From positions 12,885-53,105 of the forward strand of contig CAZPXC010000002.1 of NCBI GenBank assembly GCA_964590935.1: a DNA stretch of 40,221 nt, written 5' to 3'. The notes under the pieces were generated by a model. That model was not told the DNA's origin. It saw nothing but the letters and a program-made list of their open reading frames with translations, and made no database searches. This document shows, piece after piece, positions 4,811 to 35,412 of this stretch (positions within the stretch are counted from its first letter, which is position 1; the number at the start of each line of letters is the position of its first letter). This stretch comes from an uncultured Methanosarcinales archaeon (GTDB lineage: Archaea; Nanobdellota; Nanobdellia; Woesearchaeales; DSVV01). The position numbers and the translations under genes are program-made.

Positions 4811-5123
4811 TCGTGCAGGTGAAATTTTTTCATACTCCAAAATGGAACATTTTTGGTACCCTAAAAATCTAATAGATTTTTATGGTTTCATGGCTGCAAA
4901 CTGGCTTCTACACGGCGCTGAGGGCGCCTGCCAGTTTGCGCCATGAAAAAATTTCAATTTGAGTTGCCCTTCGGGCTAGCTTGTTGCACTTACAGAAAAA
5001 ATCCAGCCACGGCCGGGCGTAGCTGACCATGTTCTCTTGCGAAGCGAGAGGTTATGGTCAGCGAAGTAGGCCGCTGAACCGCAAGTTCGTGGCCGTCCGT
5101 GCCCTGGGTGGATGGATTTTTTC
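4811..5123 (+). repeat. structured intergenic repeat family, copy A (candidate ncRNA or MITE-like element)
   Basis: The core hairpin at 4889-4945 is homologous in structure to 15481-15533 and 35446-35498. There are extra triloop hairpins at 4838-4859 and 4863-4881. A 16-bp stem (4995-5010 with 5108-5123) encloses a nested 9-bp (5022-5030/5054-5062) and 7-bp (5034-5040/5044-5050) hairpin. Confidence 0.6.
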
Positions 5124-5220
5124 TTGACTCGAATAAAAAGAAATCAAATTAGAAACCAGGCATAACGCCAATAAAACATTTCAATACAATCCATTCAAAT
5201 TAGGTTGCATAAAATCTAAA

Positions 5221-8961: not shown

Positions 8962-9650
8962 GGTAAGCTGTAACGGTTCTTGTCCTTTTTGATCCTGCCT
9001 TCTTTGAGCAGCGCATCAAGGAAGACCAATACATGCTTCTCAGGCATGCCAGCGTTCGATGCCAGGGTCTTGACATCCTTGGTCCCATCCTTGAGCAGCA
9101 TCATGATTATGTTCCTGACCAGCGTTGCGCCGTTTTTCTTGACGACCTTGTTCTCGGCGCTGAGATTCTTGATGACCATGTCCACCTTGTGCAGTCTTCC
9201 CTGCAGGTCATTAAGAAAATCTGTGAACTCATGTGAACTGTAGACCAGGCTTTCGGGTTCCATTATCTCTACTGATGCTGGCATATAATCAAAGCAGAAC
9301 CAGACCAGCTCCTCTACGCCCTGCACCTCGAACTCAAGCTCTGAAAAAACGTTGAAGAGCTTGCTGCCTTTCTTTTTCTCTGCCTTGCTGGTGTAATCCT
9401 TAAGGACCGTTATGCCCTTGTGCTCCTCCTTGATCTTATCGACGTAAAGCTTTAGCGTATCCTCGATATGCTTTTTTGGGGCACCCATCATCTGTATTAT
9501 GGCCCTTACGACCACTTTTTGATCCTTGGTCATGATTGCATTAGAAATCATGACAGTCTTATATAATTTTCGAATGTTGTAGGTAAAGTTGTTAGGTTTT
9601 TTAATGTAGATTTCTTGAAGGTGTGATTGAAATTTTTTCATTAAGGACAT
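8958..9650 (-). CDS. hypothetical protein with a possible C-terminal winged-helix; N-terminus uncertain
   Basis: 230 aa. The C-terminal LASNAGMPEKHVLVFLDALLKEGRIKKDKNRYSL looks wHTH-like. The first ~13 codons (9611-9650) are 94% identical to the 5' arm of the intergenic repeat family, so the true start may be an internal Met (MISNAIMTKDQK). Confidence 0.55.
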   Translation of the reverse strand: MSLMKKFQSHLQEIYIKKPNNFTYNIRKLYKTVMISNAIMTKDQKVVVRAIIQMMGAPKKHIEDTLKLYVDKIKEEHKGITVLKDYTSKAEKKKGSKLFNVFSELEFEVQGVEELVWFCFDYMPASVEIMEPESLVYSSHEFTDFLNDLQGRLHKVDMVIKNLSAENKVVKKNGATLVRNIIMMLLKDGTKDVKTLASNAGMPEKHVLVFLDALLKEGRIKKDKNRYSLP

Positions 9651-15377: not shown

Positions 15378-15703
15378 TTTCTTGAAGGTGTGATTAAAAT
15401 TTTTCCATTCGGCGGCTGGTCCGGCTTAAACACATTAGAATATATTTTTTTGATAGTGCAATGAAATTTTTCCATCCACTGGCTGCAGGAGTCGCTTAAA
15501 CACGGCACTGCTGGTGCCTGCGACTCCTGCGCCTATGGAATATAATAATTCCGCCGTTTTAAAACAGGCGGAATTATTATGGTCGGAGAAAACTGACGCA
15601 GTCAGTTTTCGATTGACAAATTTCTGTTTGAGAAGCCCTCCGGGCCTGCCTCTTGCACTGGAAGGAAAATGACCGTCGAAGCCATGGGTGGCTGGATTTT
15701 TTC
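15378..15703 (+). repeat. structured intergenic repeat family, copy B (partial 5' duplication plus a full unit)
   Basis: Partial unit at 15378-15433. The full unit has hairpin 1 at 15481-15533, hairpin 2 at 15542-15580 (14 bp) and hairpin 3 at 15588-15610 (10 bp, triloop). Ends tccatccac (15471-15479) and gtggctgga (15688-15696) are inverted. Confidence 0.65.
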
Positions 15704-15838: not shown

Positions 15839-16969
15839 ATGAAAATAATATGCTATGTTCTCATGATCCTGCTGGCAGCGTTCATAGTTGCCGGAGTTGA
15901 TGGTTCGTTCAGGCTGAAGGTCTGCAAGGACCAGGCATGCACGATGGAATCGACAGTGTTCCTGCAGCACAGCAATATCTACTTCAATTACGAGTCGTCA
16001 GAAGAGGTTCTTTCCGCAGCGGCAGTGCTTACTTATCCTGACGGCAAGACTATGAAGCTAAAGCTGCCGGCATCGATAAAGGCAGACCTGATGGGGCCTT
16101 ATGTCCTGGAGGCCACGGCAGTTGCAGGCGGAACAATAAAACAGACCAAACGCTTTGGCGTGATAGAGGCACCGGCACAAAACCTGCAAAGCGAGCCTGC
16201 ACAGGAAAAAAAGGAAAAGGAGCAGGCAGCGGTGCCGGACCAGCCAGCAGTGACCAATGACCAGCCAGAAACAGGCCTGACTGACCTGATGGTACCGCAG
16301 AACAGGACCAACAAGAACGATTCCTTGATGGACAATGAGCTTCTCTTAGGGATATACATGATGGGGGGATTGCTGGCCCTCTTCATCGCTCTCTATCTTA
16401 TCGTCCGCTGGAAAAACAGGAGCAGAGACAAGGCGCATCCGAGAAAAAGCCTCAAAGAGTTTGCAGAGGACCATGACGTGCTCCACCCGCATAAGTATAT
16501 GAACAAGATCGTAAGCTACATAAGCTCGTCGCTGGAGCAGGGCTATTCAACAAAGGATATCTATGACCATCTGCGCTCAAATGGCTGGAAGGAAAAGCAG
16601 ATAAACGAGGGATTCAGGAGATACAAGCTGCTGGGAAGCTATCATGAGATGAAAGACAGCAACATGCCCGAGAAGGAGATAAAGAAGGCGCTCTTGAAAG
16701 ATTACAGCCGGGCACAGATAAGGGAGACGCTCTCGCACCATTCAGCCATACTTGGCAGGGATGCGACAGAGGAGGACAGGATGAGGCACCTGCATGAGCT
16801 TGCAGAGGTCCACGAGGTCCACAAGGCAGAAGGCAACCTGGCAAAGCTCCAGTCTTACATATCAAAGTGCTACAGCCATGGATACAGCCGTCAGATGATA
16901 AGGGATACCCTGATCGACAAGGGCTGGTCTGCGGAGACCGTAGACAAGGCGTTCGAGCTGTTGAGGTAG
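15839..16969 (+). CDS. bitopic membrane protein: small extracellular domain, TM helix, cytoplasmic tail with three helical repeats
   Basis: 376 aa. N-terminal signal or anchor MKIICYVLMILLAAFIVAG. Second TM LLLGIYMMGGLLALFIALYLIV followed by RWKNRSRDK (positive-inside). Tail repeats: YISSSLEQGYSTKDIYDHLRSNGWKEKQINEGF, EKEIKKALLKDYSRAQIRETL and YISKCYSHGYSRQMIRDTLIDKGWSAETVDKAF. Confidence 0.7.
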   Translation: MKIICYVLMILLAAFIVAGVDGSFRLKVCKDQACTMESTVFLQHSNIYFNYESSEEVLSAAAVLTYPDGKTMKLKLPASIKADLMGPYVLEATAVAGGTIKQTKRFGVIEAPAQNLQSEPAQEKKEKEQAAVPDQPAVTNDQPETGLTDLMVPQNRTNKNDSLMDNELLLGIYMMGGLLALFIALYLIVRWKNRSRDKAHPRKSLKEFAEDHDVLHPHKYMNKIVSYISSSLEQGYSTKDIYDHLRSNGWKEKQINEGFRRYKLLGSYHEMKDSNMPEKEIKKALLKDYSRAQIRETLSHHSAILGRDATEEDRMRHLHELAEVHEVHKAEGNLAKLQSYISKCYSHGYSRQMIRDTLIDKGWSAETVDKAFELLR

Positions 16970-17237: not shown

Positions 17238-18464
17238 TTAATGATGTCCTAATATTATAAATGGAATATCGGTTAGCGTGTCATAGCATGGAATAACGCC
17301 GGTTTTTTGGATAAGACAATATTTTCCATTTTTTCTGAAATATACAAGCGTGTGGCCATCTCTGTCATCCTGAGCATCAAGCATTCCTGATGCATAACCT
17401 GACCTATCAAGTAAATAAGAAGCAAATCGCGCAAAATCTACACAGTTGGCTTCATGTTTGTCAAAAACTTTGCGAATGCTGAATCGTGCACCACAATAGT
17501 ATTTATATTCAATATTTTTCCTTGTCCAGTATTCAATGGTCTCTGGCGAATTCAATCTGTCCGCAACAGTATCAAAATCTGACCATCTTTGTTTGTTCTT
17601 CGCTTGGATCACTGCGAATTTTCTATCATCAAAAACATACCCAAACTTCTCAGGATGCTCTCTTGACACCTGGATCGTATACTGAATTGCCAGTCCGTTG
17701 CCGAACTGGGGATTCTCTTGGCTGTATTTCAGTATCTGTTTCTTGAGGCTCTCATCTGTACAACTGTCAAATATTTTCCTGCTTTCACTCTGCATCCATT
17801 TTCCTATCTGCAGGTAACTGTTTAGCTTGCCCCACCAGGCCCTGTCTAACAAGTCCTCGAGCTCATAGTCATTGATAACCTCTTTTGCTTCATCGCTTTT
17901 ACCATCTTCAAAGAGCCAGAACAGTGCCTGCAGGGGCGAGTTATATTTCCTGACATTCTTGATGCCGATCTTGTCCATCTGCCTGAAGACGTCCTCGAAT
18001 CTGTCAGGCATCTGCTGGTATAGCCCGACCAGCTCATCCAGTGCCTTGATCTCGTGTTCTGATATACCGTCCTTTATCTCTGGCAATTGCCCCAGCTGGA
18101 AAGCAAGCTCTGAAAAACCGGTCTTGCTGTTTTTGTCAAACAGGGAGAACAGTGCAGGGACGACCCTGTCAGAGTATTTTTCTGGATCGCTGTGATACAG
18201 CTCGACAATCTGCTTTGCCTTATCTTCAGGAACATACGAAAGACTGTTTATCTGGCTGGAGTTTGGAGATGTCTTTCCAAAGCCCACTGTGGCGCAACCG
18301 GACAGGGTGTCAAGAATAAAAGGGACAGATGCAGTGCTGGCTATTGCCACAGCTATCTTAGACAGGGCTTCCCTTCTTCCAGGAATAGTTGGCGGATTGA
18401 TCAATCTGTCCAGAGACGATCTCATCCTGTTTCCAAACGAGCCAAAAACTGCCATTTTCATCAA
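17238..18464 (-). CDS. secreted transglutaminase-like cysteine protease-fold protein (Tat-like signal plus lipobox)
   Basis: 408 aa. The N-terminal GRREALSKIAVAIASTASVPFILDTLSGC combines an RR motif, a hydrophobic stretch and LSGC. The C-terminal EANCVDFARFASYLLDRSGY...DGHTLVYF matches the Cys/His core of transglutaminase-like domains. Confidence 0.65.
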   Translation of the reverse strand: MMKMAVFGSFGNRMRSSLDRLINPPTIPGRREALSKIAVAIASTASVPFILDTLSGCATVGFGKTSPNSSQINSLSYVPEDKAKQIVELYHSDPEKYSDRVVPALFSLFDKNSKTGFSELAFQLGQLPEIKDGISEHEIKALDELVGLYQQMPDRFEDVFRQMDKIGIKNVRKYNSPLQALFWLFEDGKSDEAKEVINDYELEDLLDRAWWGKLNSYLQIGKWMQSESRKIFDSCTDESLKKQILKYSQENPQFGNGLAIQYTIQVSREHPEKFGYVFDDRKFAVIQAKNKQRWSDFDTVADRLNSPETIEYWTRKNIEYKYYCGARFSIRKVFDKHEANCVDFARFASYLLDRSGYASGMLDAQDDRDGHTLVYFRKNGKYCLIQKTGVIPCYDTLTDIPFIILGHH

Positions 18465-18546: not shown

Positions 18547-20067
18547 ATGTTCATAAACTACTCCTCTATTCTAATGCCAAATATGAAAAAGAAACACCTG
18601 CTGATGATATCCCTGCTGGTGATATTCCTTATTACGGTCGGGATAAGATTGTTCTATGCGTTCGGGACATCGACGTTCAGCGATGATTCCGCCTATTTCA
18701 CGCTCAGGCAGATAGAGCATATAAAGGATACAGGCCACCCGCTGTACTATGACCCGTTGAGCTACGGTGGCAGGACCCATGTGTTCCTGCCGTTATTCCA
18801 TTATATACTTGCATTCTTCAGCCTGTTCTTCGGCACGATCGCTGTTGCCAAGGCTGTCCCGAATATAGTCGCATCCACGCTTGTCTTCGTGGTGTATCTC
18901 ATCATCAGCCGCATCACAAGGAACAAGTGGGTCGCTGTCCTGACAGCGTTCATAAGCGCCTTTATCCCAATATACATCTCAGAGACTATAAACTCGATAT
19001 CTGTCTACTCTTTCACTATTCCGCTCAGCTTCCTGATGCTCTATTTCCTGCTTAGCAGGAAGTTCAACCTTTTCCTGGCCTCATTGATACTGTTCATGCT
19101 GCTCTCCCCTTCTGTAGTGCTCATCGTCATGACGATGATACTGTATTTCGTGTTTTCATGGGTAGAGGGCTTTACGCCCCACAGGGCTGAGATCGAGCTT
19201 ACAGTCTTCTCTGTATTCTTGGTGACCTGGTTCTATTTCCTGGTCTACAGGGATGCATTTTTGCTATACGGATACAGGATAATATGGTACAACATCCCAA
19301 AGGAGGTGCTTGCCAAGTATTTCTCCCAGTTTGACATGCCCACCGCGCTGTACCAGATCGGCATCATACCAATCCTGTCAGGCATATACATGTTTTATCA
19401 TTACATGTTCAAAAAGAAGAAAAAGTCAGTATACATGCTTATCAGCCTCCTGGTAATAGTCGGGCTGCTCCTGCTCCTGAAGTTCATCCAGCTCAGGATG
19501 GGCATGATGTACATAGGTGTTGCACTCGCGATCCTGTTCGGCGAGTTCTTCATCCTGCTCATGTCATACATCTCGAGGACCAAGTTTGCAGGGTACAGGA
19601 ACTGGATCGTCGCCGGATTCATCGCAATCTTCATCGCCACTTCCTTCCTTCCATCGCTTGGCTATGCCAATGAGAAGATGTCTGAAAGCGTAAGCGAGGA
19701 AAAGGTCTTTGCGTTCACGTTCCTGGGCAACATATCAGAGGAAAACGCCGCCTTCGTCGGCTCGGTATTCGAGGGCAACCTTATCAACTATTACATAAAA
19801 AGAAAGAACATCATCGACACGGACTTCCTGATGATCAGGAATGTGGATGCAAGGCTGCGCGACGTAAGGACAATATACACCTCGGCTATCGAGACCAAGC
19901 CTGTCGAGATCATGAAAAAATACAACGCTGACTATATAATATTTACAGATGCTGAAAAAAGATATTACAACATCACAAGGATAGCGTACGTGGATGAGGA
20001 CTGTTTCCCCCTTGTCTACTCAGGAAAGGACGTGAAGGTCTATAAAAGAAAATGCTGGACAGACTAA
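18547..20067 (+). CDS. GT-C fold membrane glycosyltransferase, STT3/AglB-like (short form)
   Basis: 506 aa, more than 10 TM segments. The first loop FSDDSAYFTLRQIEHIKDTGHPLYYDPLSYGG resembles the STT3/AglB EL1 acidic motif. It has a short C-terminal soluble domain and no canonical WWDYG. The start may be at 18583 (MKKKHLL). Confidence 0.55.
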   Translation: MFINYSSILMPNMKKKHLLMISLLVIFLITVGIRLFYAFGTSTFSDDSAYFTLRQIEHIKDTGHPLYYDPLSYGGRTHVFLPLFHYILAFFSLFFGTIAVAKAVPNIVASTLVFVVYLIISRITRNKWVAVLTAFISAFIPIYISETINSISVYSFTIPLSFLMLYFLLSRKFNLFLASLILFMLLSPSVVLIVMTMILYFVFSWVEGFTPHRAEIELTVFSVFLVTWFYFLVYRDAFLLYGYRIIWYNIPKEVLAKYFSQFDMPTALYQIGIIPILSGIYMFYHYMFKKKKKSVYMLISLLVIVGLLLLLKFIQLRMGMMYIGVALAILFGEFFILLMSYISRTKFAGYRNWIVAGFIAIFIATSFLPSLGYANEKMSESVSEEKVFAFTFLGNISEENAAFVGSVFEGNLINYYIKRKNIIDTDFLMIRNVDARLRDVRTIYTSAIETKPVEIMKKYNADYIIFTDAEKRYYNITRIAYVDEDCFPLVYSGKDVKVYKRKCWTD

Positions 20068-21515
20068 AAAGGCAGTATAAAAGATACTCCCTTATCATCG
20101 TGATGCTGCTGGCGTTAGCTGTATTGCTCGTCCCCCATGTGATAAGATACAGCCATTTTGACAACTTCATGGTCGGCGGTATGCCTTATTACCATGCGAG
20201 GATCGCCCAGCGCCTGAGCCACGGCTATTCCGGGTATGACCAGCTCAGCTACAGCGGCTCTGCGTACATATTCGATGCATACGACGTTGCCCTCGCCATC
20301 ATCGGGCAGTTCATAGGTGTACTTACAGCATCCAATGTCCTGCCGTTTGCACTGGGGCTCTGCTCTGTGGTGCTGCTCTTCCTCCTCCTGGGCAGGCTTA
20401 AGCTCAGCTCAGGCATGAGACTCTTGACCATGCTGCTATGGATACTCTCGCCTGTCTTCATCTACACGTTCACTGTCTCCAACCCTTTCGCTCTCGTGAT
20501 CTTCCTTAACCTCGCAGGGTTCTATTTTTTTATGTCAAAGGACAGGAAGGCTGTCTTTTCGATTCTGTTCTTTGCGTTCATACCCCTGTTCGGGATCATA
20601 AACACCCTTATCACTGCATTCCTTGCCGTTATCTACACACTGAAGGAGAGGAAAAAGACAAGGGTACTTATCATGGTGCTTGTCCTGCTGTTCTCTGTGG
20701 GGTTTGTATACAATTTTCTTTTTTATTCTGCCTATGGCCTGCCGGGAAGGTTCATCCCTGTAAAGGAGAACCTCATCCAGAACAGCCTTGTGGAGCTTGG
20801 CGCGGTCCTCGGCTTCAACACCTTTGTGCTTCTGCTTTCTATAGTTGGCATGTTGAGCAACTGGAGGAAGAAGAGCAGGTTCGTATGGCTCTATATCCTT
20901 ATGGCAGCGCTTATCCTTTCCTTTATCTTCATCGATCCCCAGTTCAAGTCCCTCCTCAGCATCCTTGTCTCTTTTTTTGCAGCGTTCGGGCTGGCCACGC
21001 TTGCTGACATGAGGTGGGAGCTTAAGCTGATAAGAAACCTGACCATTGCCATGCTTTTATTCAGCATCATGTTCTCGACGTATGCATATATAGGAAGACT
21101 GTCCTTCATGGAACCGGGCCTGGATACGATAGGTTCCTTGACATGGCTCAGGTCCAACTCAGTCCATGAAGGGGTTGTCATATCCGACTATAAGAACGGG
21201 TTCTGGATCGAGTATTTTGCGCGGCGTCCTGTGGTTATGGACTCTCTTACCAGATACAGGCCGGAACCCAGGCAGCGTTACAATGACACGATCACGCTTT
21301 TCAGGACCAGGGACATGGACACGGCATCAGGGATCCTTGACAGGTATGATGTCAGGTATATCTTTGTCGATGCAAAGACCAGGGCACTGATGCTGGGTGA
21401 GAACAATATACTGGGCCTTGAGTTCCTGCTTGAGAACAGCAACAGCTTCAAGATGATTAAAAATACCAACGATGTGGAGATATGGGAATACAACCAGAGC
21501 AAAGTTCCTGGATAA
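20052..21515 (+). CDS. GT-C fold membrane glycosyltransferase, STT3/AglB-like paralog
   Basis: 487 aa, multi-TM. It has MPYYHARIAQRLSHGYSGYDQLSYSG in loop 1. The C-terminal ISDYKNGFWIEYFARRPVVMD sits where WWDYG is expected, followed by DRYDVRYIFVD. It overlaps the upstream gene by 16 nt. Confidence 0.55.
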   Translation: MLDRLKRQYKRYSLIIVMLLALAVLLVPHVIRYSHFDNFMVGGMPYYHARIAQRLSHGYSGYDQLSYSGSAYIFDAYDVALAIIGQFIGVLTASNVLPFALGLCSVVLLFLLLGRLKLSSGMRLLTMLLWILSPVFIYTFTVSNPFALVIFLNLAGFYFFMSKDRKAVFSILFFAFIPLFGIINTLITAFLAVIYTLKERKKTRVLIMVLVLLFSVGFVYNFLFYSAYGLPGRFIPVKENLIQNSLVELGAVLGFNTFVLLLSIVGMLSNWRKKSRFVWLYILMAALILSFIFIDPQFKSLLSILVSFFAAFGLATLADMRWELKLIRNLTIAMLLFSIMFSTYAYIGRLSFMEPGLDTIGSLTWLRSNSVHEGVVISDYKNGFWIEYFARRPVVMDSLTRYRPEPRQRYNDTITLFRTRDMDTASGILDRYDVRYIFVDAKTRALMLGENNILGLEFLLENSNSFKMIKNTNDVEIWEYNQSKVPG

Positions 21516-21539
21516 AATGACCAGCAGACGGGCAGCAAA

Positions 21540-22799
21540 ATGACTATTCTGAATTACTTGCCTACAATCCTGACTTTTATCTTTCTTTTGGTAATACTTT
21601 CATACTATATACTCATTTTTATACCAAGAAAAAAGCCAAGGCCGCATAAGAGGTTTTCCAGCATCTCAGTTATCATACCTGTACATAATGAAGAAGAATA
21701 TATCGAGGAGTGTATAGAATCTGTGCTGGCAGCAGGGTTCAAAGGCACCAAGCAGGTCATTGTTGTAGACGACGGGAGCAAAGACAAAACCGCCAGTATA
21801 GTTTCTAGGTTCAGGAAAGAAGGTGTCCGGCTCATCAAGACCAGGCATACAGGAAAATCAGCATCGATAAACCGCGCGCTTGCCGTGGCGTGCGGCGAGC
21901 TCATCGCTATCGTAGATGGAGACAGCTATATCAATAAGGATGCACTGCAAGCTTTGGCCCGCGAGGTGGAGCGTAAAAATGTTGTCGGAGCCACCTGCGT
22001 CGTCAAGGTAAAGAACAGAAGCAGGCTTCTTTGTATGTGGCCCCATATAGAACTGATATACGGATCCCTTATCAGGTCGATATTATCGAAGATAAACGCC
22101 AACATCACCACACCCGGGCCCTTAAGTGTCTACAGGCATAAGCAGCTAAAGGAGATCGGCGGTTTCAGCACTGAAGGTTTTTCTGAAGATGTTGATGTGA
22201 CCATACGCCTGATAAGAAAAGGATACAGGATCGGCTTTTCAGATGATGCGACAACATGGACTAACATGCCCTATAACATTAAGGGTTTCATCAGACAAAG
22301 GACAAGGTTTGCAAGAGGCCTGCTCAATATCCTAAAAAGGCACATGCAGCTGAACACGACAGCAATTGACCTTTACACGCTGCCGCTGTATTTTTTCTTA
22401 TATGTCCAGGCTGTCATAATGGGGATGTTCACGATATACCAGATCGGCTCAGGGTACATAACATGGTTCGCATCGTACGGCACGTATATAAGCTTTGGTG
22501 TGTTAAGGTTCTTTTTTGAATGGGCCTCAATCTATGGTTTTGTAAAATGGATCATAAGTGTGGCATCAGGAACTGTGCCGCTTACTTTTTTGACCATGGC
22601 AGGGATAGTGAGCTCATTGTTGTCATATCCACTGTACTTCTATGCTGTTTTCAAGTATGATAAAAGGATCGACCTGCTCCATATTATCCCGTTGTTCTTC
22701 ATGGCTCCGTTCTGGTGGGCCCTGATGATAATCAATATAGTGTGCCTGCCTGAGATGTTCATGAGGCACCAGAACAACATCTGGAAGAAGAATGAATAG
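21540..22799 (+). CDS. family 2 glycosyltransferase, processive-synthase architecture (variant QRTRF motif)
   Basis: 419 aa. Motifs: VIIPVHNEE, VVDDGSKD, VDGDS, FSEDVDV and QRTRFARG in place of Q(R/Q)xRW. It has an N-terminal TM and several C-terminal TM helices, as in PgaC/NodC/chitin or cellulose synthase-type enzymes. Confidence 0.8.
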   Translation: MTILNYLPTILTFIFLLVILSYYILIFIPRKKPRPHKRFSSISVIIPVHNEEEYIEECIESVLAAGFKGTKQVIVVDDGSKDKTASIVSRFRKEGVRLIKTRHTGKSASINRALAVACGELIAIVDGDSYINKDALQALAREVERKNVVGATCVVKVKNRSRLLCMWPHIELIYGSLIRSILSKINANITTPGPLSVYRHKQLKEIGGFSTEGFSEDVDVTIRLIRKGYRIGFSDDATTWTNMPYNIKGFIRQRTRFARGLLNILKRHMQLNTTAIDLYTLPLYFFLYVQAVIMGMFTIYQIGSGYITWFASYGTYISFGVLRFFFEWASIYGFVKWIISVASGTVPLTFLTMAGIVSSLLSYPLYFYAVFKYDKRIDLLHIIPLFFMAPFWWALMIINIVCLPEMFMRHQNNIWKKNE

Positions 22800-22872
22800 C
22801 ATGGTGGATATCACAAAAAAACACGGATTCAAACAATATCTTTTTAAATGATGAAAACAGTTCACGGACAAC

Positions 22873-24111
22873 ATGAATGCAATTTATAACTTCCTCGTGT
22901 ACTTTGTATGGTTCCTGGCCACTTATTACACTATCTTCTTTTTCTTATCCCTATATATACACAGGAACATGCTGTTCGAGGATAAAAAATCAGTAAGCCG
23001 CAAAAGACGGATGGTTTCGGTTCTTATCCCTGCATATAATGAAGAAAAGGATATCGCAGAGACCATCAGGTCACTTAAGAAACTTGACTACAGGAGGGCA
23101 GAATTTATCATAATAAACGACGGCAGCAGCGATAATACATCTTCTATCGTAAACAAGAGCATCAGGGGCGATAAGAGGTTCAGGTTTATTGACAATAAGG
23201 TCAATTCCGGAAAGGCAGCGTGCCTGAACAATGGCATCGCCCAGGCCAGGGGTGAATTTATTGCATGCATGGACGCAGACTCTGTGATCGATAATGATAT
23301 CATGGGCAAGGTCCTGCCTTATTTTAATGATCCAAAGGTGGGTGCCGTGACCGTAACTGTGCAGGTTAAGAATCCAAAAACATTCCTTCATAAGATAATA
23401 GACCTGGAATTTACACTGGGGCTGTCGCTTTTCCTGAAACTGTTCTCATTTCTAGAATGTGTTTTCGTAACTCCAGGGCCTTTTTCCATCTATCGCAGGA
23501 GTGTACTTAACGAGATAGGCGGCTATGATACAGACAATATAACAGAGGACCATGAGATAGCCTTCAGGCTGCATAAGCATGGCTATAAGATCAGGAACTG
23601 CATGGAGGCGAAGGTGTACACCACCCTCCCGGATACTTTTAAGGGCATCTATATCCAGAGAAGAAGGTGGTATTCTGGGGCGATCCAGACCCTGTTCCAG
23701 CATAAGGATATCGTCTTTAAGAAAGAGTATGGGCTGTTCGGATTTTTTATCCCGTTCAACTATTCATTGATCGGCCTGGGGCTGGTCCTTTTTGGGGCAT
23801 CTACTTATCTTTTATTTTCAAAGACCCTCGACAATATATTATATTTCAAATACACGAATTTCAATTTTCTTGACCATATCTTTGATTTCAACTGGGATAT
23901 ACTTAACTATAGCAGGGTCAATCTTCTTGGGATGGGCCTGTTTGTAGGGACTGTTGTGCTCATGCTGATGGGGCTTAAGTTCACCAGGAAGAAATACTCG
24001 GACAACAAGCTTGGGCTTCTGGGATACCCTTTCCTGTTTTTTCTTTATCAATTATACTGGGGCGGTGCCATCCTTGCAGCGATAAGAGGGAAAAGGGTAA
24101 AATGGAGATAA
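22873..24111 (+). CDS. family 2 glycosyltransferase, processive-synthase architecture (canonical QRRRW)
   Basis: 412 aa. Motifs: VLIPAYNEE, INDGSSD, MDADS, ITEDHEI (TED) and QRRRWYSG, plus an N-terminal TM and C-terminal TM bundle. Confidence 0.85.
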   Translation: MNAIYNFLVYFVWFLATYYTIFFFLSLYIHRNMLFEDKKSVSRKRRMVSVLIPAYNEEKDIAETIRSLKKLDYRRAEFIIINDGSSDNTSSIVNKSIRGDKRFRFIDNKVNSGKAACLNNGIAQARGEFIACMDADSVIDNDIMGKVLPYFNDPKVGAVTVTVQVKNPKTFLHKIIDLEFTLGLSLFLKLFSFLECVFVTPGPFSIYRRSVLNEIGGYDTDNITEDHEIAFRLHKHGYKIRNCMEAKVYTTLPDTFKGIYIQRRRWYSGAIQTLFQHKDIVFKKEYGLFGFFIPFNYSLIGLGLVLFGASTYLLFSKTLDNILYFKYTNFNFLDHIFDFNWDILNYSRVNLLGMGLFVGTVVLMLMGLKFTRKKYSDNKLGLLGYPFLFFLYQLYWGGAILAAIRGKRVKWR

Positions 24112-24815
24112 AGAGACGGATAGCCCTTATATCATTCATCATAACCCTGTTTCTGCTGTTTACAGTCATACTGCTCGGCTCTGTCATGAACAATAAAAGG
24201 GAAGAGCACCTGGATTCCCAGTTTCAGACGATCTACCAGGACTTTAACAATATGCAGGTTTTATTTCTCCTGTCAGAATCCTACGATAATGAGATGGCAT
24301 GCCTGGCATTTGAGACAAAGCTTAAGGAGATGGACACAACGATCTGGACACTGGGAGAGAAGATTGATAGTTACCGTTCTGCGAGCGAAGAGTTCCATCA
24401 AAATACATACTACTGGGACCAGAAGAAAGTTTTCAATGAGGATGAGGTGTTTTATTACCTTCTCATGAAGCAGATGCTGGACAAATGCAACATAAGCAAG
24501 CAGATCATACTGTTCTTCTACCAGAATTCCGCTGACTGCAAGAAGTGCGATGACCAGTCGTTCATACTAAGCGATATAAGAAAGCTTGATGATGACAAGG
24601 GCAGGCAGGAGGTCGCGATCTTTTCCTTTGACATGGACCTTAACCTGTCAACACTCAATATCTTATCAAAGTATTATAAGATCGAAAAATACCCCTGCAT
24701 TATAATGGATGAACAGAAATACTGCGGCATCCAGGATAAGGATTTCATCATGGACAGGATATGCTCTGATAAACCGAACCTCTACATCTGTTCTATATAC
24801 AATAAAGGAAAGTAA
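24102..24815 (+). CDS. membrane-anchored thioredoxin-fold-like protein with a CxxC motif
   Basis: 237 aa. N-terminal TM IALISFIITLFLLFTVILLG. ILFFYQNSADCKKCDDQ carries CKKC, and KYPCIIMD is a possible cis-Pro loop. It overlaps the upstream GT2 by 10 nt. The fold assignment comes from motif spacing only. Confidence 0.5.
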   Translation: MEIKRRIALISFIITLFLLFTVILLGSVMNNKREEHLDSQFQTIYQDFNNMQVLFLLSESYDNEMACLAFETKLKEMDTTIWTLGEKIDSYRSASEEFHQNTYYWDQKKVFNEDEVFYYLLMKQMLDKCNISKQIILFFYQNSADCKKCDDQSFILSDIRKLDDDKGRQEVAIFSFDMDLNLSTLNILSKYYKIEKYPCIIMDEQKYCGIQDKDFIMDRICSDKPNLYICSIYNKGK

Positions 24816-24826
24816 GTGATACATCC

Positions 24827-25417
24827 ATGAAAAAGATAACAGATGAATCATCCGGCAGGATACTGGCAATCTGTATCTGCGTATTCTTTATCGTCCTGGG
24901 CATCATCGACATGACAGCAGGAAGAAAGGACCTGATGGCTGACAGGTTCTTCATCGCCTTTCTGGCCCTGGTTTCCTTTTTCCTGTATAAAAAACTGCAC
25001 ATGAACATCGTCATCATGCTTGTCGGCCTGGCTGCTGTAGTCCTGCATTCGATAAAGCTGTACGGCAACAACTACTTTGGCATCCCCTTCGACCATTATA
25101 TGCACGTCGTAGGGGGCTTTGCATGCGCCCTTATCTTCTACAATTACCTTAACCATGAGCTTAAGAAAAAGAACCATCTCCAGGCATTTTTCCTTGCCGT
25201 CTGCATCACAGCCGGTCTCGGCTCATTCATGGAAATAATGGAGTTTGTCGGCTATTCATTATTGGGCCAGGGAGGAGGGGTTTTCTTTTACGGAGCAGGA
25301 GACATAGGTGAATGGAACAATGCAGCATGGGATATGATCAACAACTCTATCGGCGCTATCGTAGCCTCTTTCACCTGTTTTCTTGTAGATATCCTCAAAG
25401 ACAGGAACCGCCGTTGA
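24827..25417 (+). CDS. integral membrane protein, function unknown
   Basis: 196 aa with 5-6 hydrophobic segments. It is the last gene of the plus-strand glycosylation operon, 11 nt after the previous stop. Confidence 0.6.
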   Translation: MKKITDESSGRILAICICVFFIVLGIIDMTAGRKDLMADRFFIAFLALVSFFLYKKLHMNIVIMLVGLAAVVLHSIKLYGNNYFGIPFDHYMHVVGGFACALIFYNYLNHELKKKNHLQAFFLAVCITAGLGSFMEIMEFVGYSLLGQGGGVFFYGAGDIGEWNNAAWDMINNSIGAIVASFTCFLVDILKDRNRR

Positions 25418-25631
25418 CTTATTTCTTAAAAAATTATATAGTCGTTGGTTATCTTTTATGATAATTGTCTTGATACGCTTTTTTCCTTTGGATATCTTCA
25501 ATGTGGCGACAGACATCACAAGCGTGATTATGCCGGACAACATCCCGAATATGTTCAGGAAATTCAGCCCCCTGTCACCAAGATCTTCATACAGTTCCGC
25601 AAAAACAGGATGTATAAAAAATTATTGGCTG

Positions 25632-26843
25632 TCAGGCATACTTTTTGATGAGCCTCTCCAGATGCTCAAAAAGCAGGGAATCATCCCATCTCCCGATCCT
25701 GGAAATATTTTTCCTGTATCTTTCAAGGTTAGACTCAAATGACCTGATATCCCTGAGGCTTAACCTCTCTGCAAATGAGCCGTACCCTTTCTGTTTTATG
25801 CAGTAGGCGTTGTATATCTGCTCAAACTGCTTTTCCACAGGGATGCACAGTATCGGCTTTTTCAGGTAAAGTGCCTCTGATATCACTGTAAAGCCCCCGT
25901 TGATTATAACATACCTGCAGGTCCTCAGGTCCTCGAGAAAGGTCTTTTCGCTGAACGGCATGAACTCAAGATTGCCGGTTTTTCTCTTCCGGCCCATCCC
26001 GTATATCCTGTACCGGATGCCGGTCTTTTTCAGCACAGGCAGCATCCTTATGTTGGTCTCAGACGTCTGATAGATGAGGACAAAGTCCTTGTCAACAGGC
26101 TTTAGCGAAAGGACAGATTCGCGTATTATAGGCGGGACAACCTTTGTCCTGCCCGGTCTCCTGGCATGAAACTCTGCAAAGGCGGTGATGATGTAATGGC
26201 TGGCCCATGGGTGAAGGAAGCGGATGATACATGTCTGGTAAAACGAGTGCTTAAATCTCGTCTTAAGCTCGGTGAGAGCATGGTTATTGTCGATGTTTAT
26301 GCAGGGTATCCCAAATAACAGCGAGAAATACTCTGATGCAGACTCGAAATCAGATATTATCACATCAGGCTTAAAACGCCCAATAAGCGGCCTTAATATC
26401 CTGTAATTGGCCACAACCATGTATGGCATCGTCCGGATGAACCTTGCGAAAGAACGAAGGTACTGGACATTGTTGTCCTTGTAGACAAGAGTATTGCCGT
26501 ATATCTTATGCACTCTTGAGCCGTATCTTTCCCTGAGATAGGGATAAGACCTTTCTGCGGCTGTTATCAGGACCTCATGCTTCTTTGTAAGCCATGCAAG
26601 CACTGAATCACTCCTTGTTGCATGCCCCATGCCCTCTCCGCATACTGAGTACCATATCCTTGCCACATATACAGGTGTTCCTGCAAATAATTTAAAGTTA
26701 TCGAAGGAATCAAGTAATAAATGGATCATATGGTGAAGTCTCCAATTTGATATCTTCTTGAAAAAACCCATCCACTGCGGGTGGAGCAATGCCAACATGG
26801 ATATGATCTCAAACACGCTGGGAGCCTGCATCTGATATTTCAT
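25632..26843 (-). CDS. GT-B fold glycosyltransferase (GT1/GT28, MJ1255-like)
   Basis: 403 aa. Has the N-terminal glycine-rich motif VCGEGMGHATRS and the C-terminal INGGFTVISEALYLKKPILCIPV..QFEQ..NA. The first ~58 aa are atypical, so an internal GTG at 26666 (VARIWYSVCGEGMGH) is an alternative start. Confidence 0.75.
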   Translation of the reverse strand: MKYQMQAPSVFEIISMLALLHPQWMGFFKKISNWRLHHMIHLLLDSFDNFKLFAGTPVYVARIWYSVCGEGMGHATRSDSVLAWLTKKHEVLITAAERSYPYLRERYGSRVHKIYGNTLVYKDNNVQYLRSFARFIRTMPYMVVANYRILRPLIGRFKPDVIISDFESASEYFSLLFGIPCINIDNNHALTELKTRFKHSFYQTCIIRFLHPWASHYIITAFAEFHARRPGRTKVVPPIIRESVLSLKPVDKDFVLIYQTSETNIRMLPVLKKTGIRYRIYGMGRKRKTGNLEFMPFSEKTFLEDLRTCRYVIINGGFTVISEALYLKKPILCIPVEKQFEQIYNAYCIKQKGYGSFAERLSLRDIRSFESNLERYRKNISRIGRWDDSLLFEHLERLIKKYA

Positions 26844-26888
26844 CGCCTACCTGAGAAAGCGATAACCCTTAAGATATCTCTGAATAAT

Positions 26889-26900
26889 CAGATTTAAATA
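26889..26900. promoter_or_regulatory. palindromic TATA element (ATTTAAAT) between divergent glycosyltransferase genes
   Basis: cAGATTTAAATA lies 24 nt upstream of ATG 26925 (plus strand) and about 46 nt upstream of ATG 26843 (minus strand). Confidence 0.45.
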
Positions 26901-26924
26901 CTTGCTTTGGAATACATTTTTTTT

Positions 26925-28304
26925 ATGAAACATAGGATTTTCAGGCACCCGTTATTTTATCTTCTTTTGGTCACTGCTGCTGTTAAGGTGTTTTTTTTGC
27001 TCTCCAGATACCATCTTTTCATCTGGGATGAGGCAGTCTATCTGGGGATGGGAAAGTGGATATTTTCTGCAGGCCGCTTGGGAATCTGGGAATGGATAAG
27101 GCCCCTCGGATTACCGCTGGTCCTTGGAGCATTATGGAAAACAGGGCTTAATTACCAGGTTCTTGCTGACCTTGTGATCCTCCTCTTCACTCTCGGGACA
27201 ATAGCCATGACATATCTTATCGCTGAGGAAGTGTTCAACAGGAAAACCGCTTTTCTCTCTGCAATATTCCTGCTTGCCACACCGGTCTTCTTCTATAATT
27301 CCATGCTTGTTATGACAGGCATACCCTCGCTTTTCTTCATACTCCTGGCAGTTTATCTTGCCATGAAAAAAAAGTATTGGCTCTCCGGGCTGTTCTCATT
27401 TCTCGCGTTCTTTTTCAGGTATCCTGCCGGGCTGATCATCGTTGCAGTAAACCTGATGCTGCTGTACAAACTTATCAAAAGGAAAAACTGGAAACATATC
27501 CTGAGGCCGGCCCTGGGCTACAACCTGGTCTTCTTTTCCGGCCTTGCTGCATACCTGCTGTACAACAGGCTTTCCTTCGGGCAGTTCCTCGAGCCATTCC
27601 TGCTCGCGAGCCAGCACCAGAGCAGCATAATAGGCAATATCCCGGGCTTTTTTGCAAACCTGCTGTACTATCCCTATACTATCGTGATAACCAACATATT
27701 CATCATATCTGTTCTATTTTTCAGGTACAGGAAAAACTCAGGCCATGTCCTTGTTCCACTTGCTGTCTTCCTGCTCTATTTTACTGCAATACCCCATAAG
27801 CAGCCGCGCTTTGCCATACTGTTCCTGCCCTATGTCATGATGCTTGCCTCTTCCGGCTTTTTTACAGTGGTATCATACCTGAAAAAATACAGGTCGGCAA
27901 GGATGGTCTTGCTGCTCCTTCTGCTTGGGTTTATCGCTTACCCTGCGTATCTTGATTACCAGATATTCAGCAGGCTGCCCTCAGAAGAGCCAGGTATTGT
28001 AAAAGACTATTACAGCTATTTTGACGGCTATAACGGCACTATACTGACATCAGACCCTGTTCCTGCTGCGTACACAGACAGCAGGTACATAGGATATTAC
28101 AGCAATATGACCAACGCCTGGATGATCTATGACACCAATATCAATAATTCCATAGCAGTTATATACACGCCAGCCTCTTTCCCGTGCATAGACCAGGAGT
28201 GCAACGCTTCCAAGACAGAGCTGGAGAACGAGATAAAGAATGATGCGACTCTTGTCTACAACAGCACATGGCTGGGCGAACTAAAGCAGATATATGTTAA
28301 ATAG
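26925..28304 (+). CDS. GT-C fold glycosyltransferase, PMT_2/ArnT-like (GT39/GT83 type)
   Basis: About 459 aa from ATG 26925 (the track starts at TTG 26907). It has more than 10 TM helices and an acidic loop-1 motif HLFIWDEAVYLGMGK typical of dolichyl/undecaprenyl-phosphate-sugar dependent transferases. Confidence 0.75.
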   Translation: MKHRIFRHPLFYLLLVTAAVKVFFLLSRYHLFIWDEAVYLGMGKWIFSAGRLGIWEWIRPLGLPLVLGALWKTGLNYQVLADLVILLFTLGTIAMTYLIAEEVFNRKTAFLSAIFLLATPVFFYNSMLVMTGIPSLFFILLAVYLAMKKKYWLSGLFSFLAFFFRYPAGLIIVAVNLMLLYKLIKRKNWKHILRPALGYNLVFFSGLAAYLLYNRLSFGQFLEPFLLASQHQSSIIGNIPGFFANLLYYPYTIVITNIFIISVLFFRYRKNSGHVLVPLAVFLLYFTAIPHKQPRFAILFLPYVMMLASSGFFTVVSYLKKYRSARMVLLLLLLGFIAYPAYLDYQIFSRLPSEEPGIVKDYYSYFDGYNGTILTSDPVPAAYTDSRYIGYYSNMTNAWMIYDTNINNSIAVIYTPASFPCIDQECNASKTELENEIKNDATLVYNSTWLGELKQIYVK

Positions 28305-28812: not shown

Positions 28813-29106
28813 ATGATTGGCAGTGAAGGCTATATTAACAATGGGAAGCCAATGCTGATATACACTTATTCTACAGAGCATCTGCTGAAAAAAGATAAGG
28901 TGAGGTTCTATTATGCCCTCAAATGCCGGGACGGGAAATCCGGTATTGTCAAGGAACTGAAGATAGTGCATCTTGGAAGGACCGTGCTCATGGTCGATGC
29001 CAGGCACGAAGAGGATATGGTCCAGTTCTTCAAGCTGTGGAACCTGCCCTATACCAGACGAAAGGCGATCGTAGATGATGATGTGCTGAGGGGTGGACCG
29101 CCATGA
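28813..29106 (+). CDS. small conserved-looking protein translationally coupled to the giant surface protein gene
   Basis: 97 aa from ATG 28813 (MIGSEGYINNGKPMLIYTYSTEHLLKKDKVRFYYALKCRDGKSGIV...). The track's TTG 28756 start lies inside the promoter. Its stop overlaps the giant gene ATG (ATGA at 29103-29106). Confidence 0.6.
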   Translation: MIGSEGYINNGKPMLIYTYSTEHLLKKDKVRFYYALKCRDGKSGIVKELKIVHLGRTVLMVDARHEEDMVQFFKLWNLPYTRRKAIVDDDVLRGGPP

Positions 29107-32100
29107 GAAGGCAGTATATGCTCCTTGCGATGCTGATCATCGCCGCTGCCAGCGCACAGGCTGCACAGTACTCTGTCTGCAGTACGGGCTGTGATTTCAC
29201 GAACATCACAGGTGCCCTGGAGAACGTGACCGGGACAGGGAACACGCTCTTCATCAACGGGTCAGGCACATACAACATGACCAACACCACTACGTTTTTT
29301 GTATATGCTGCCTCCAGCAACGGCGGGTTAAGTGTAAACGCGTCCGATGTAATCCTTGAATGTAATAATGTAAGCATTGCCGGCAACAGCACAGGATACG
29401 GCATCTTCGTGACTGCAGATAATGTCACTGTCCACAATTGCCAGGTCAGCAACTATACCCAGGGGATAAGGATCCTGGGCTCTTCACAGGACTCGGTAGT
29501 ATCAGGCAGCATTATCTCTGATTCTGATTACGGCCTCTGGGTGAGCGCCTCAAATTATACCCTGATAACCGGATCAACTATAAGTTCAGCCGCATCCTCG
29601 GCTGTGCAGTTTGCCAATGGCGCAGTCAACAACACGCTGCTTAACTGCATCATCCAGAGCTCTGTGCAGGACATAAGCTCAAGCGGCACAGGCAGCTCTA
29701 ATCTCGTGGTAAACAGCTCATTTGACGGTTCCAAATCCACAAATGTCCAGGACAGCTCCCGTGTATTCGTAAAATGGTACTTCCGCGTCTTTGTAAATGA
29801 CACATCAGGCAACCAGGTCAATGCCACAGTAAATATCAGCGACAGCTTCTCTACATTGGCATATTCACTGCAGACAGATGCAAGCGGCTACACTGCAGAG
29901 AAGAACATCACAGAATACATGAGAAACAGCAGCTCCTCTTCAATATTCTACACCAACTATACGTTCTATGCCTATAATTCTACTAATTTCGAGAACAGCT
30001 CTGTCAATGTAACAGGCTCTGGAACTATTGTACTGACTTTCGACCTTACTGCGCCGCAGATATCCGGCATCCAGAATTCGACAAGCAACGAGTCTGTCAA
30101 TATCACCTGGACAACAGATGACCTAAGCAACTCAAGCATCAGATGGGGCAATTCCTCTGCCAGCCTGAACAATGCACTTTCCAACAGCAGCATGACGAGG
30201 GTACATTTCATAAATATCTCTGATGAATATTCAAATAAGACCCACCTGGATGCAAACACGACATACTATTTTAACATCACTTCCTGCAATGACCAGGGCT
30301 TATGTACAGAGGCAGGGGTGTTTAATTTCACCACAAACACGACAATCGACAGATCAGCCCCTTCTGCCAGCAACATCGTCAACACAACAACAAATGAATC
30401 TGCATTGATAACATTCGACACTGATGATAATGCTAATGCGACTGTCGAATACGGGACTAATGTTTCTATGACACTGTCTACAGGAAATTCAAGCTATAAT
30501 CAAAACCATACGTTCAATATAACCGGCCTGAGTGATAATACAACATATTACTACAATATCACTGTATGCAACGGGGACCAGTACTGCAATGAGTATGGCA
30601 GCTATAATTTCACGACCAACGCAACAATAGACTATTCTGCCCCGGTCATAAGCAATATTCTCAACACAACGACAAACGAGTCTGTGCTAATAACATTCGA
30701 CACTGACGACAATGCTAATGCGACTATCGAATACGGGACCAATGTTTCTATGACACTGTCTACGGGAAATTCAAGCTATAATCAAAACCATACGTTCAAT
30801 ATCACTGGCTTGGATTCCAACACGACATATTATTACAATATAACCGCATGCAATTCAAATGGGAACTGTACAGAGCAGGGCGTTTATAATTTCACGACCA
30901 ACCAAACAACCCCAGACACATCAGCACCTGTTATAAGCAATATCATGAACACAACAACAAATTCCACAGCAACAATAACATTCGACACTGACGATAGTGC
31001 AAACGCTACCATCAAATACGGCACAAGCACATCACTGGGCTCTTCTGCAAAAAACAGCACTCTTGCCCATAATCATTCATTCAGCATCACCGGGCTGGAC
31101 TCCAACACCACATATTACCTCAACATAACCGCATGCAACTCATATGATAACTGCACAGAGCAGGGCACCTATAGCTTCACGACCAACGCAACAATAGACA
31201 CCTCTGCCCCGGCAATAAGCAACATCATCAACACAACAACAAATTCCACAGCAACAATAACATTCGACACTGACGATAGTGCAAACGCTACCATCAAATA
31301 CGGCACAAGCACATCACTGGGCTCTTCTGCAAAAAACAGCACTCTTGCCCATAATCATTCATTCAGCATCACCGGGCTGGACTCCAACACCACATATTAC
31401 TACAACATAACCGCATGCAACATCTATGGCTACTGCAGCGAAGACGGGACATACAGTTATCAGACGAATACCACTCCTGATCAGAGCCCGCCTGTGATAT
31501 CTTCTGTATCCAATTCCTCGATAACCAACATAAGCGCTGTGATATCCTGGACAACGAACGAGGCAGCGAACAGCACTGTCAAGTACGGCACATCATCGGG
31601 CAGCTATACTGCTTCAAAGGGCAGCGCAACGATGACGACAAGCCACAGCGTCACCCTCACAGGGCTCTCTGATGAGACGACATATTATTATGCTGTCAAC
31701 AGCTCTGATGCCAGCGGCAACTCTGCACAGGGCTCGGAAAAGAGCTTTACGACATCTGATTCGACCCCGCCTGTGATAAGCAGTGTCCAGAGCTCAGGCG
31801 TCATGGGAACTTCTGCCACTATCTCATGGACCACGGACGAGACTGCCGATTCCCAGGTGAAGTACGGCACCACGAGCAATTCATATTCTCATTCAAAATC
31901 GACAACAGGGTATTTCACCAACCACAGCATCGCGCTGAGCGGCCTTTCGGGGGACACGACCTATTATTATCGCGTGGTCAGCAACGATTCTACCGGGAAC
32001 TCTGCCCAGAGCAGCCAGGGCAGCTTCACCACTACGGATACTGAAGCACCATCAATAACCTTCACATACCCTGTAAATGCCTCGACCACAGTCGCTGATG

Positions 32101-35375: not shown

Positions 35376-35412
35376 ATTTGTGGTTTCATGATATTCTCTG
35401 ATGTTGTTTTTT

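Follow-up and report, generated by a model that had tools for sequence, protein, structure and literature searches.

What do archaeal surface proteins carry on the inner side of the membrane? We know of almost no work on the cytoplasmic end of giant archaeal surface proteins, and the question is raised by two forward-strand genes on a 40,221-nucleotide (nt) stretch of contig CAZPXC010000002.1 (assembly GCA_964590935.1, positions 12,885 to 53,105), hereafter the window, from an uncultured archaeon. The open reading frame (ORF) list and AlphaFold identify the gene at 15839-16969 as encoding a type I membrane protein of 376 amino acids (aa), here called the small protein; from the ORF list and Pfam/NCBIfam scans, the gene at 29103-35375 encodes a surface glycoprotein of 2090 aa, here called the giant. 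A sequence-only reading of the window had proposed that the two share a helical repeat module in their cytoplasmic parts, and the regions it gave, 16503-16966 (aa 222-376) in the small protein and 34341-35372 (aa 1747-2090) in the giant, are correct against the ORFs. Profile comparisons indicate that both proteins belong to a large domain family that has no curated model, and structural modelling predicts that its unit is an autonomously folding three-helix mini-domain of ~38 residues.

The giant contains six 38-aa units, with starts at aa 1750, 1794, 1846, 1925, 2004, and 2053, which align without gaps and in which Y4, L22, and G26 are invariant. Placed on the forward strand by the unit alignment and a hidden Markov model (HMM), they are g1 (34350-34463, aa 1750-1787), g2 (34482-34595, aa 1794-1831), g3 (34638-34751, aa 1846-1883), g4 (34875-34988, aa 1925-1962), which has linkers rich in E, Q, and P on either side, g5 (35112-35225, aa 2004-2041), which is basic and has lost Gly12, and g6 (35259-35372, aa 2053-2090), which is also basic and forms the extreme C-terminus. 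An alignment of orthologs further supports g2, g5, and g6; g5 is strongly conserved in it, and the AGYGPQDVVNKF segment of g2 shows position-specific conservation. The small protein has two clear 38-aa units, also on the forward strand: s1 (16508-16621, aa 224-261; 59 bits against the HMM) and s3 (16847-16960, aa 337-374; 63 bits). A third, s2 (16628-16741, ~aa 264-301), is degenerate, scoring ~3 bits, with both glycines gone and the register shifted by two 1-residue deletions; it is kept among the four orthologs. The count of six units in the giant therefore stands, but that of three equal units in the small protein does not.

The eight clear units of the window score 48 to 63 bits against the unit HMM, of which these same eight are the training set. 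A model built from the giant units alone ranked the small protein first (E value of 2.3e-6) among the 497 six-frame ORFs of the window, and the reverse model, from the small-protein units, found the giant at an E value of 7e-4; the unit HMM revealed no further carrier among all other ORFs of the window. Since the giant-only model detects the small protein, the similarity of the two is not circular, and the proposal that both carry the same module is borne out by this reciprocal detection. The giant units are 18 to 42% identical to one another in protein and 39 to 54% in DNA, and a search for DNA repeats over the stretch that encodes them detected none; at these identities they are old duplicates. 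One could suppose that two proteins without common ancestry merely show the same generic amphipathic-helix pattern. The units are indeed short and helical, and the top matches in the PDB are de novo designed helical miniproteins, which places the pattern near an idealized three-helix bundle. The reciprocal detection within the window, a 38-column ungapped alignment with invariant Y, L, and G, and 1057 protein clusters (described below) with the same register and the same placement next to a transmembrane (TM) helix refute this explanation, to which we assign almost no probability.

The fold was examined with AlphaFold2 models of the full-length small protein, computed from a four-ortholog alignment, and of its tail alone. 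In the full-length model, a beta-sandwich ectodomain leads through a disordered stalk into a long TM helix, and the tail behind it has a predicted local distance difference test (pLDDT) score of 83 to 96; modelled alone, the tail reached a pLDDT of 87.8 and a predicted template modelling (pTM) score of 0.78. Each unit is laid out as helix 1 (Y-I-x3-L), a Gly turn (often G-Y-S), helix 2 (I-K/R-x2-L), a Gly-aromatic turn (G-W/H/Y), and helix 3 (V/I-x3-F/L), and the predicted loops fall exactly at G12 and G26, in keeping with the earlier proposal of three short helices with Gly turns. In s1, the predicted helices span aa 221-233, 238-247, and 252 onward (pLDDT >90), in s3 they span aa 334-346, 351-360, and 365-375, and even the degenerate s2 has predicted helices at ~264-273, 278-285, and 291-298. 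In the small protein, an extra helix bearing the motif L-x-E-F/L-A-E-x-H-x-V stands before each clear unit. The first of these (16451-16483, aa 205-215) is predicted as a helix at aa 205-211. The second, EEDRMRHLHELAEVHEV (16769-16822, aa 311-328), is predicted as a helix at aa 311-324; in it the motif recurs at aa 318-328, with LAEVHEV 10 aa upstream of s3. The pre-unit motif is shared by a subfamily; across the family, 21 of its 26 occurrences lie at most 30 aa upstream of a unit, in a zone that makes up 11% of residues. Foldseek searches with the tail-only model found nothing significant in the PDB (best E value of 0.11, to a designed helical repeat) or in a viral library.

On which side of the membrane do the units lie? 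The small protein is composed of a signal peptide, an immunoglobulin (Ig)/PKD-like beta-sandwich (aa 25-110), a disordered stalk, a TM helix (16340-16405, aa 168-189, from hydropathy and sequence; AlphaFold helix 162-199) followed by the basic stretch RWKNRSRDKAHPRK, and the helical cytoplasmic tail. Foldseek matches to its full-length model are dominated by weak ones to Ig/PKD folds and are confined to the ectodomain, and three orthologs (P0002, P0036, and P0107) with 39 to 44% identity have the same architecture. The giant has a signal peptide, seven purple-acid-phosphatase-N/fn3-like stretches, a PGF-pre-PGF domain, a TM helix placed by hydropathy (34116-34178, aa 1672-1692), and a cytoplasmic tail of ~398 aa. 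The helix is followed by the basic stretch KSHRH, and a juxtamembrane motif, YKSHRHPQQDSFAE (34176-34217), is near-invariant in the ortholog alignment. The N-terminal region of the giant looks beta-helix-like, as judged by the Beta_helix and NosD Pfam families recorded for its ortholog P0007 rather than for the window protein itself. Elsewhere in the ectodomain, between Ig-like domains, the segment at 32400-32950 (aa ~1100-1280) is highly acidic and rich in Cys, Asp, and Glu, with a repeated C-x-D-D/E-x-D pattern, and may be a candidate metal or calcium binder. Hydropathy and sequence support for both proteins the order that had been proposed, namely, signal, ectodomain, single TM helix, basic stretch, and repeats.

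The same side is indicated across the family. Among the 150 best representatives, the units follow the last TM helix in 97, 57 of which have a recognizable N-terminal signal or anchor; they stand at a signal-less N-terminus before a single TM helix in 16 and before a multi-pass domain in 7; and in none do they lie between a signal peptide and a TM helix. The remaining 30, among them many short or incomplete sequences, lack a TM helix. In the 15 aa that border the adjacent TM helix, lysine and arginine together number 3.17 on average on the side of the repeats and 1.57 on the opposite side, with 84 versus 14 proteins biased accordingly. The representatives have 0.35 NxS/T sequons per 100 aa in their tails versus 2.29 in their ectodomains, and 0.45 versus 3.09 Cys; in the giant, the 1669-aa ectodomain holds 93 sequons and 39 Cys and the tail of ~399 aa holds none of either. 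An intracellular location of the repeat arrays, as first proposed for the two window proteins, is well supported by these computed features, for both proteins and for the family.

How widespread is the unit? A homology search with the whole small protein yielded only two relatives, so that the family had to be reached through a profile of the unit. As the sequence-only reading had suggested, an HMM of the repeats was taken to database scale: the profile of the eight clear units, scored exhaustively against 1.84 billion representative proteins, gave 1057 clusters at an E value of ≤1e-3, 78 at ≤1e-10, and 10 at ≤1e-30. From 277 full-length units, the consensus is L-x-D-Y-I-K-K-A-L-K-K-G-Y-S-x-E-Q-I-K-K-A-L-L-K-A-G-W-D-E-E-x-V/I-D-K-A-F, with conservation of 92% for Y4, 90% for G12, 85% for I18, 82% for K/R19, 94% for L22, 97% for G26, 92% for W/H/Y27, and 99% for V/I32. 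The window units fit this family definition, being ungapped, with Y4, G12, I18, K/R19, L22, G26, an aromatic residue at 27, V/I32, and F/L36, and lying next to the TM helix on its basic side. Family proteins carry two to ten copies strung on the cytoplasmic side, with linkers of a median 18.5 aa between them, and the commonest arrangement is a C-terminal tail on signal-peptide-bearing single-pass surface proteins, including giant adhesin-like glycoproteins. Units carry net charges between -7 and +10, on average +0.5, and strongly acidic ones are numerous.

The sources named in public records are all archaeal metagenome-assembled genomes, mostly of DPANN archaea (Woesearchaeota, Nanoarchaeia, Nanoarchaeota, and Nanobdellota), and the closest relatives of the giant come from a 1.84-Mb chromosome labelled "Ca. 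Woesearchaeota" and from two contigs labelled Methanosarcinales. Product names on the family records are "hypothetical," "PGF-pre-PGF domain-containing," "LamG-like," "parallel beta-helix repeat," and "DUF4234 domain-containing," and a literature search for a description of the tail module found nothing relevant. Two family members without a TM helix, P0031 (1539 aa) and P0078 (2171 aa), contain dozens of units; in proteins of this type, weak matches sum to 89 bits for RecX_HTH1 and 66 bits for a winged helix-turn-helix (wHTH) model without any single stretch passing, and one such protein bears the JGI name "lambda repressor-like predicted transcriptional regulator."

Is the unit related to anything already named? 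No Pfam or NCBIfam model captures it, in scans of both window proteins and of 107 diverse single units, nor was a match to a known, functionally defined domain found, an outcome that would have spoken against the sequence-only reading. That reading had named no family, but a nearest named relative does exist, namely, the three-helix repeat of RecX, which is the most consistent weak match, at or below threshold, in Pfam, NCBIfam, the PDB, and hhalign. RecX repeats are described by Pfam PF21982 (RecX_HTH1), PF02631 (RecX_HTH2), and PF21981 (RecX_HTH3) and by the structures 3c1d, 3d5l, and 3dfg. RecX_HTH1 scored 25.9 bits, against a cut-off of 26.0, on unit s3 only (aa 349-371), and PF21982.3 is assigned to the small protein in a precomputed annotation that used a later version of the model; the Pfam RecX models did not match the giant. 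At an E value of <0.01, matches among the 107 single units were to RepB_primase_C (10 units), RecX_HTH1 (5), UBA_6 (3), RecX_HTH2 (3), UBA (2), UBA_2 (1), and UBA_9 (1), with other three-helix models scattered, and the sole recurring NCBIfam names were RecX (at most 10 of 107) and DUF494 (6 of 107). DUF494/Smg, RepB_primase_C, an MCM winged-helix model, EF-hand, and other models were set aside, being weak on some units and inconsistent across the family.

Aligned by hhalign, the 107-unit alignment matched Escherichia coli RecX alone with a probability of 88.8% and a narrow enterobacterial RecX alignment with a probability of 92.3% and an E value of 5.5e-7, over 39 columns to RecX residues 75-113, the second repeat; these E values are pairwise, and the RecX profile is of low diversity. 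Residues 75-113 have a pattern very close to the family consensus YIKKALKKGYSxEQIKKALLKAGWxxExVDKAF, and the second pre-unit helix of the small protein aligns to the end of RecX repeat 1. RecX consists of three, and up to five, tandem three-helix repeats of ~50 aa that resemble helix-turn-helix (HTH) domains and pack as a curved, rigid rod whose basic face is important for function (PMC2500204). The family is like it in its tandem small HTH-like bundles of variable number, which in RecX is three to five (PMC2500204). The differences are several: family units are ~38 rather than ~50 aa long, are mostly separated by linkers rather than packed into a rod, and have no conserved basic face; they sit on archaeal membrane proteins, whereas RecX is a soluble bacterial regulator linked to recA; Foldseek compares the tail model with 3dfg at an E value of 3.9 and a TM-score of 0.20 to 0.25; and only 3 to 10 of the 107 units reach an E value of <0.01 with any RecX model. 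No recA or radA was seen among the neighbouring ORFs scanned, the neighbours being glycosyltransferases. Our reading is that the unit is distantly related to the RecX/HTH-type three-helix repeat or, failing that, closely analogous to it in structure and sequence. The family members are not RecX proteins, and the function of RecX cannot be transferred to them.

This likeness bears on the idea that the units form an array that binds DNA or RNA, as RecX or homeodomain-like HTH domains do, and so tethers nucleic acid to the membrane. In addition to the RecX repeats themselves, which resemble HTH domains and bind DNA (PMC2500204), weak matches to wHTH, MerR, and RepB_primase_C models and the lysine-rich character of g5, g6, and many DPANN units fit such an array. 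The mean unit charge of only +0.5 and the many strongly acidic units do not, and neither do the net negative g1 to g3 and about neutral g4 (counted by hand), the E/Q/P-rich linkers, the missing basic face of the RecX kind (PMC2500204), or a gene context of surface glycosylation rather than DNA metabolism. We consider nucleic acid binding very unlikely.

A likeness to UBA and TS-N bundles, which the sequence-only reading had noticed, holds at the level of fold class, with RecX being the nearer match. UBA, CUE, and TS-N domains are likewise three-helix bundles of ~40 aa in which helix 1 is followed by a Gly-aromatic loop and helix 2 contains a conserved Leu, and there are weak profile matches to the EF-Ts N-terminus (1aip), UBA_6, UBA, CUE, and RuvA_C. 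No UBA-type model reached threshold on a single unit, however; on the window units the E values were 0.02 to 0.19, and across the family such matches are rarer than those to RecX. A UBA-like function would make the tails receptors for a ubiquitin-like modifier (SAMP/Urm1-type) or an ESCRT-type partner, and surface proteins would thereby be flagged for turnover or sorting. The size and helix-loop spacing, including the G-Y/F loop after helix 1, would suit this, as would the weak matches to UBA_6, UBA, UBA_2, CUE, RuvA_C, and the EF-Ts N-terminus. With UBA-type models matching 1 to 3 of 107 units at an E value of <0.01, fewer than the RecX-type models, with no ubiquitin-like system evident around the units, and with no ubiquitin-like or ESCRT gene beside any of the loci examined, we regard this role, too, as very improbable.

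The best matches in the PDB profile search were the de novo designed helix-helix-helix (HHH) miniproteins 8vl3 (4.8e-6) and 8skx (3.3e-5), followed by Cpl-7 CW_7 repeats, the EF-Ts N-terminus, and RecX. The matches to the designed proteins cover helices 2 and 3 and both turns; being designed, these proteins share no ancestry with the family and offer no transferable function, and the likeness is one of shared helix-capping and turn rules. That they come first indicates that the unit is close to an idealized, self-sufficient three-helix bundle. The CW_7 repeats of Cpl-7 (5i8l) are also tandem three-helix repeats, of 42 to 48 aa, and their local motif L-x-x-A-G-Y-D-P-Q-x-V fits g2 and g3. The match spans only ~15 to 20 residues per repeat, though, at E values of 5e-4 to 8e-3, and Pfam CW_7 (PF08230) gives no match to the window units at an E value of ≤10. 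CW_7 binds peptidoglycan outside the cell (PMC5705596), and the family units are cytoplasmic and archaeal; on the partial match, the Pfam result, and the wrong cell compartment, identity with CW_7 was ruled out. PDB matches to I-MsoI, polycystin-2, and HisF were treated as noise.

Does the neighbourhood hold a partner for the tails? Just upstream of the giant, on the same strand, lies a conserved ORF of ~97 aa (28813-29106) without a TM helix and ending in RGGPP, whose stop overlaps the giant ATG by 4 nt. It is 69 to 71% identical to ORFs that overlap the giant start in the same way at two orthologous loci, L004 (9693-10004) and L009 (7711-8004), and is thus better conserved than the giant tail, which is 41 to 46% identical among orthologs. 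It has no match in Pfam or the PDB. From the gene arrangement, its product is the most concrete candidate for a cytoplasmic partner of the giant, and it may instead be a chaperone. In the gene neighbourhood, where the earlier reading had suggested looking for co-occurring cytoplasmic proteins, the ORF goes with the giant orthologs, at three loci, and not with the small protein or the wider family.

Between the two genes lies a surface-glycosylation cluster (18547-28304). It encodes a Glyco_trans_1_3 enzyme and a PMT_2-type GT-C enzyme, two polytopic membrane proteins of ~500 aa without a Pfam match, a 237-aa Cys-containing protein, and a DUF2238 protein; two further ORFs look like members of glycosyltransferase family 2 (GT2), a judgement based on their own sequence and on GT2 families annotated at the corresponding places of orthologous loci. 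The same cluster is syntenic beside the ortholog of the small protein (L001) and beside orthologs of the giant (L004 and L009), and as it accompanies orthologs of both genes, the small protein and the giant belong to a conserved cell-surface island. At L001 (2-3702), a large secreted protein (>866 aa) that is rich in Cys and lacks a TM helix is encoded by a gene whose stop codon is overlapped by the ortholog of the small gene. This suggests a two-gene arrangement of an ectodomain protein with a tail-bearing small protein that may act as a distinct anchor in the membrane. Between the small gene and the glycosylation cluster, on the reverse strand, a 408-aa protein (17238-18464) has an N-terminal signal or lipobox-like segment and a C-terminal Cys...His...Asp pattern recalling transglutaminase-like proteases; it has no Pfam match at an E value of <0.01.

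What might the arrays do? The reading that we prefer is that an array of mini-domains gives the cytoplasmic side a multivalent platform for docking or clustering. Each unit would offer a small binding surface, flexible linkers would give reach, and several units together would give avidity, so that the surface protein could be bound to a partner in the cytoplasm, or to further copies of itself, and its ectodomain thereby held or positioned. For the giant, the first candidate for a partner would be the translationally coupled 97-aa protein. Taken as a whole, with binding, partner, and signalling all conjectural, we give this statement an even chance. The outside-in coupling and the common cytoplasmic partner proposed by the sequence-only reading are likewise conjectural. 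The repeat itself, its fold and cytoplasmic side, the size of the family, the coupled 97-aa ORF, and the relation to RecX are counted in favour of the statement, as are two further observations. Among orthologs whose tails are only 41 to 46% identical, g2, g5, and the juxtamembrane motif show position-by-position conservation, which would point to specific roles for particular units. The number of units rises with ectodomain length (Spearman coefficient of 0.48, P value of 5e-7, n = 97), which would point to a trend in avidity or anchoring.

Several points weigh against this reading. The conserved unit positions are mostly core or turn residues, so that conservation alone is no proof of a binding surface. 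In the AlphaFold model, the units of the small protein are packed as one compact helical domain (pTM of 0.78) rather than as three free beads, so that an image of strung beads does not suit every member, and as the whole tail has no significant Foldseek analogue, no mechanism can be borrowed from a solved structure. The 97-aa ORF is tied to orthologs of the giant only, at three loci, and not to the small protein or the wider family, and the correlation of unit number with size is drawn from the 150 best-scoring representatives, a sample with many fragments and a bias toward multi-unit proteins.

The same trend fits a rival account, in which the units are passive anchors or stoppers: fast-folding, bulky plugs without a specific partner that fix topology and resist extraction of the single TM helix under a very large, load-bearing ectodomain. 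Unit number and tail length both grow with ectodomain size, the net charge of the units is unconstrained (-7 to +10), and the module occurs on unrelated membrane proteins of type I, type II, and multi-pass topology, such as a DUF4234 protein, all as expected of such plugs. Less expected is that particular units and the juxtamembrane motif are conserved at specific positions in orthologs, that K/R19 and the aromatic residue at 27, which are not obviously core, are strongly conserved, and that 30 of 150 representatives, many of them fragments, lack any TM helix. On balance we hold a purely passive role to be unlikely. The docking reading can also be extended, such that the array would be an intracellular coupling device of archaeal giant adhesins, chiefly of the DPANN type, and, as a multivalent platform, a functional counterpart of integrin tails, connecting ectodomains that bind a host or substrate with a specific machinery in the cytoplasm. 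Candidates for this machinery would be the co-translated 97-aa protein, a cytoskeletal element, and the glycosylation and assembly apparatus encoded between the two genes. This extension is a speculation, and a rather improbable one.

How is the giant itself held in the membrane? Its PGF-pre-PGF domain (33561-33959, aa 1487-1619; TIGR04213, 100.8 bits against a cut-off of 28) belongs to a type that normally sits just before a PGF-CTERM sorting signal, according to the TIGRFAM description. The giant resembles PGF-CTERM/archaeosortase substrates in having this domain, but PGF-CTERM models do not match it, its TM helix (aa 1672-1692) has no PGF motif, and the helix is followed by a folded cytoplasmic tail of ~398 aa rather than a short basic tail. 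PGF-CTERM anchoring was ruled out on these grounds, and the lack of the motif together with the long tail argues for anchoring by an uncleaved TM helix plus tail, without archaeosortase processing. The lineage of the giant appears to have swapped archaeosortase-type anchoring for a TM helix and a cytoplasmic tail.

Is the protein module linked to the repeated DNA nearby? The sequence-only reading had pointed out, as a possible coincidence, that copies of a DNA repeat stand near both genes. The element is real: its two copies, at 15445-15671 and 35409-35636, share 84% identity over 228 nt, an internal palindrome lies at 15542-15580, and shorter pieces occur at 9611-9642 and 5090-5124. It matches no Rfam family in a scan of the window and is absent from the orthologous loci L001 to L007, and on these grounds a link between the module and the adjacent repeat was rejected. 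Its adjacency to both genes looks coincidental, and the element itself looks like a genome-specific dispersed element, resembling a miniature inverted-repeat transposable element (MITE) or a small RNA. A different, tandem repeat of 45 nt, in at least 4 to 5 copies, occupies the left edge of the window (1-225) and probably codes for a repetitive peptide on one strand.

A RecX/HTH-like three-helix repeat is not surprising in kind, but its use in the cytoplasmic tails of surface proteins of archaea is new. Small-celled archaea that live attached to hosts are characterized by giant surface proteins, and here is a compact, easily expressed domain, found in more than 1000 protein clusters, that almost always adjoins a TM helix on its cytoplasmic side. 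It can be approached through a profile usable in annotation, a structural model of good confidence, the conserved juxtamembrane motif, and the conserved co-translated small protein. Even if the units are passive anchors, the family is a useful marker of the cytoplasmic side for the annotation of archaeal membrane proteins. If the integrin-tail-like extension were true, attachment outside the cell would be sensed or mechanically resisted inside it, and if the units bind a common cytoplasmic factor, they would show how such archaea anchor, cluster, or read out their adhesins.

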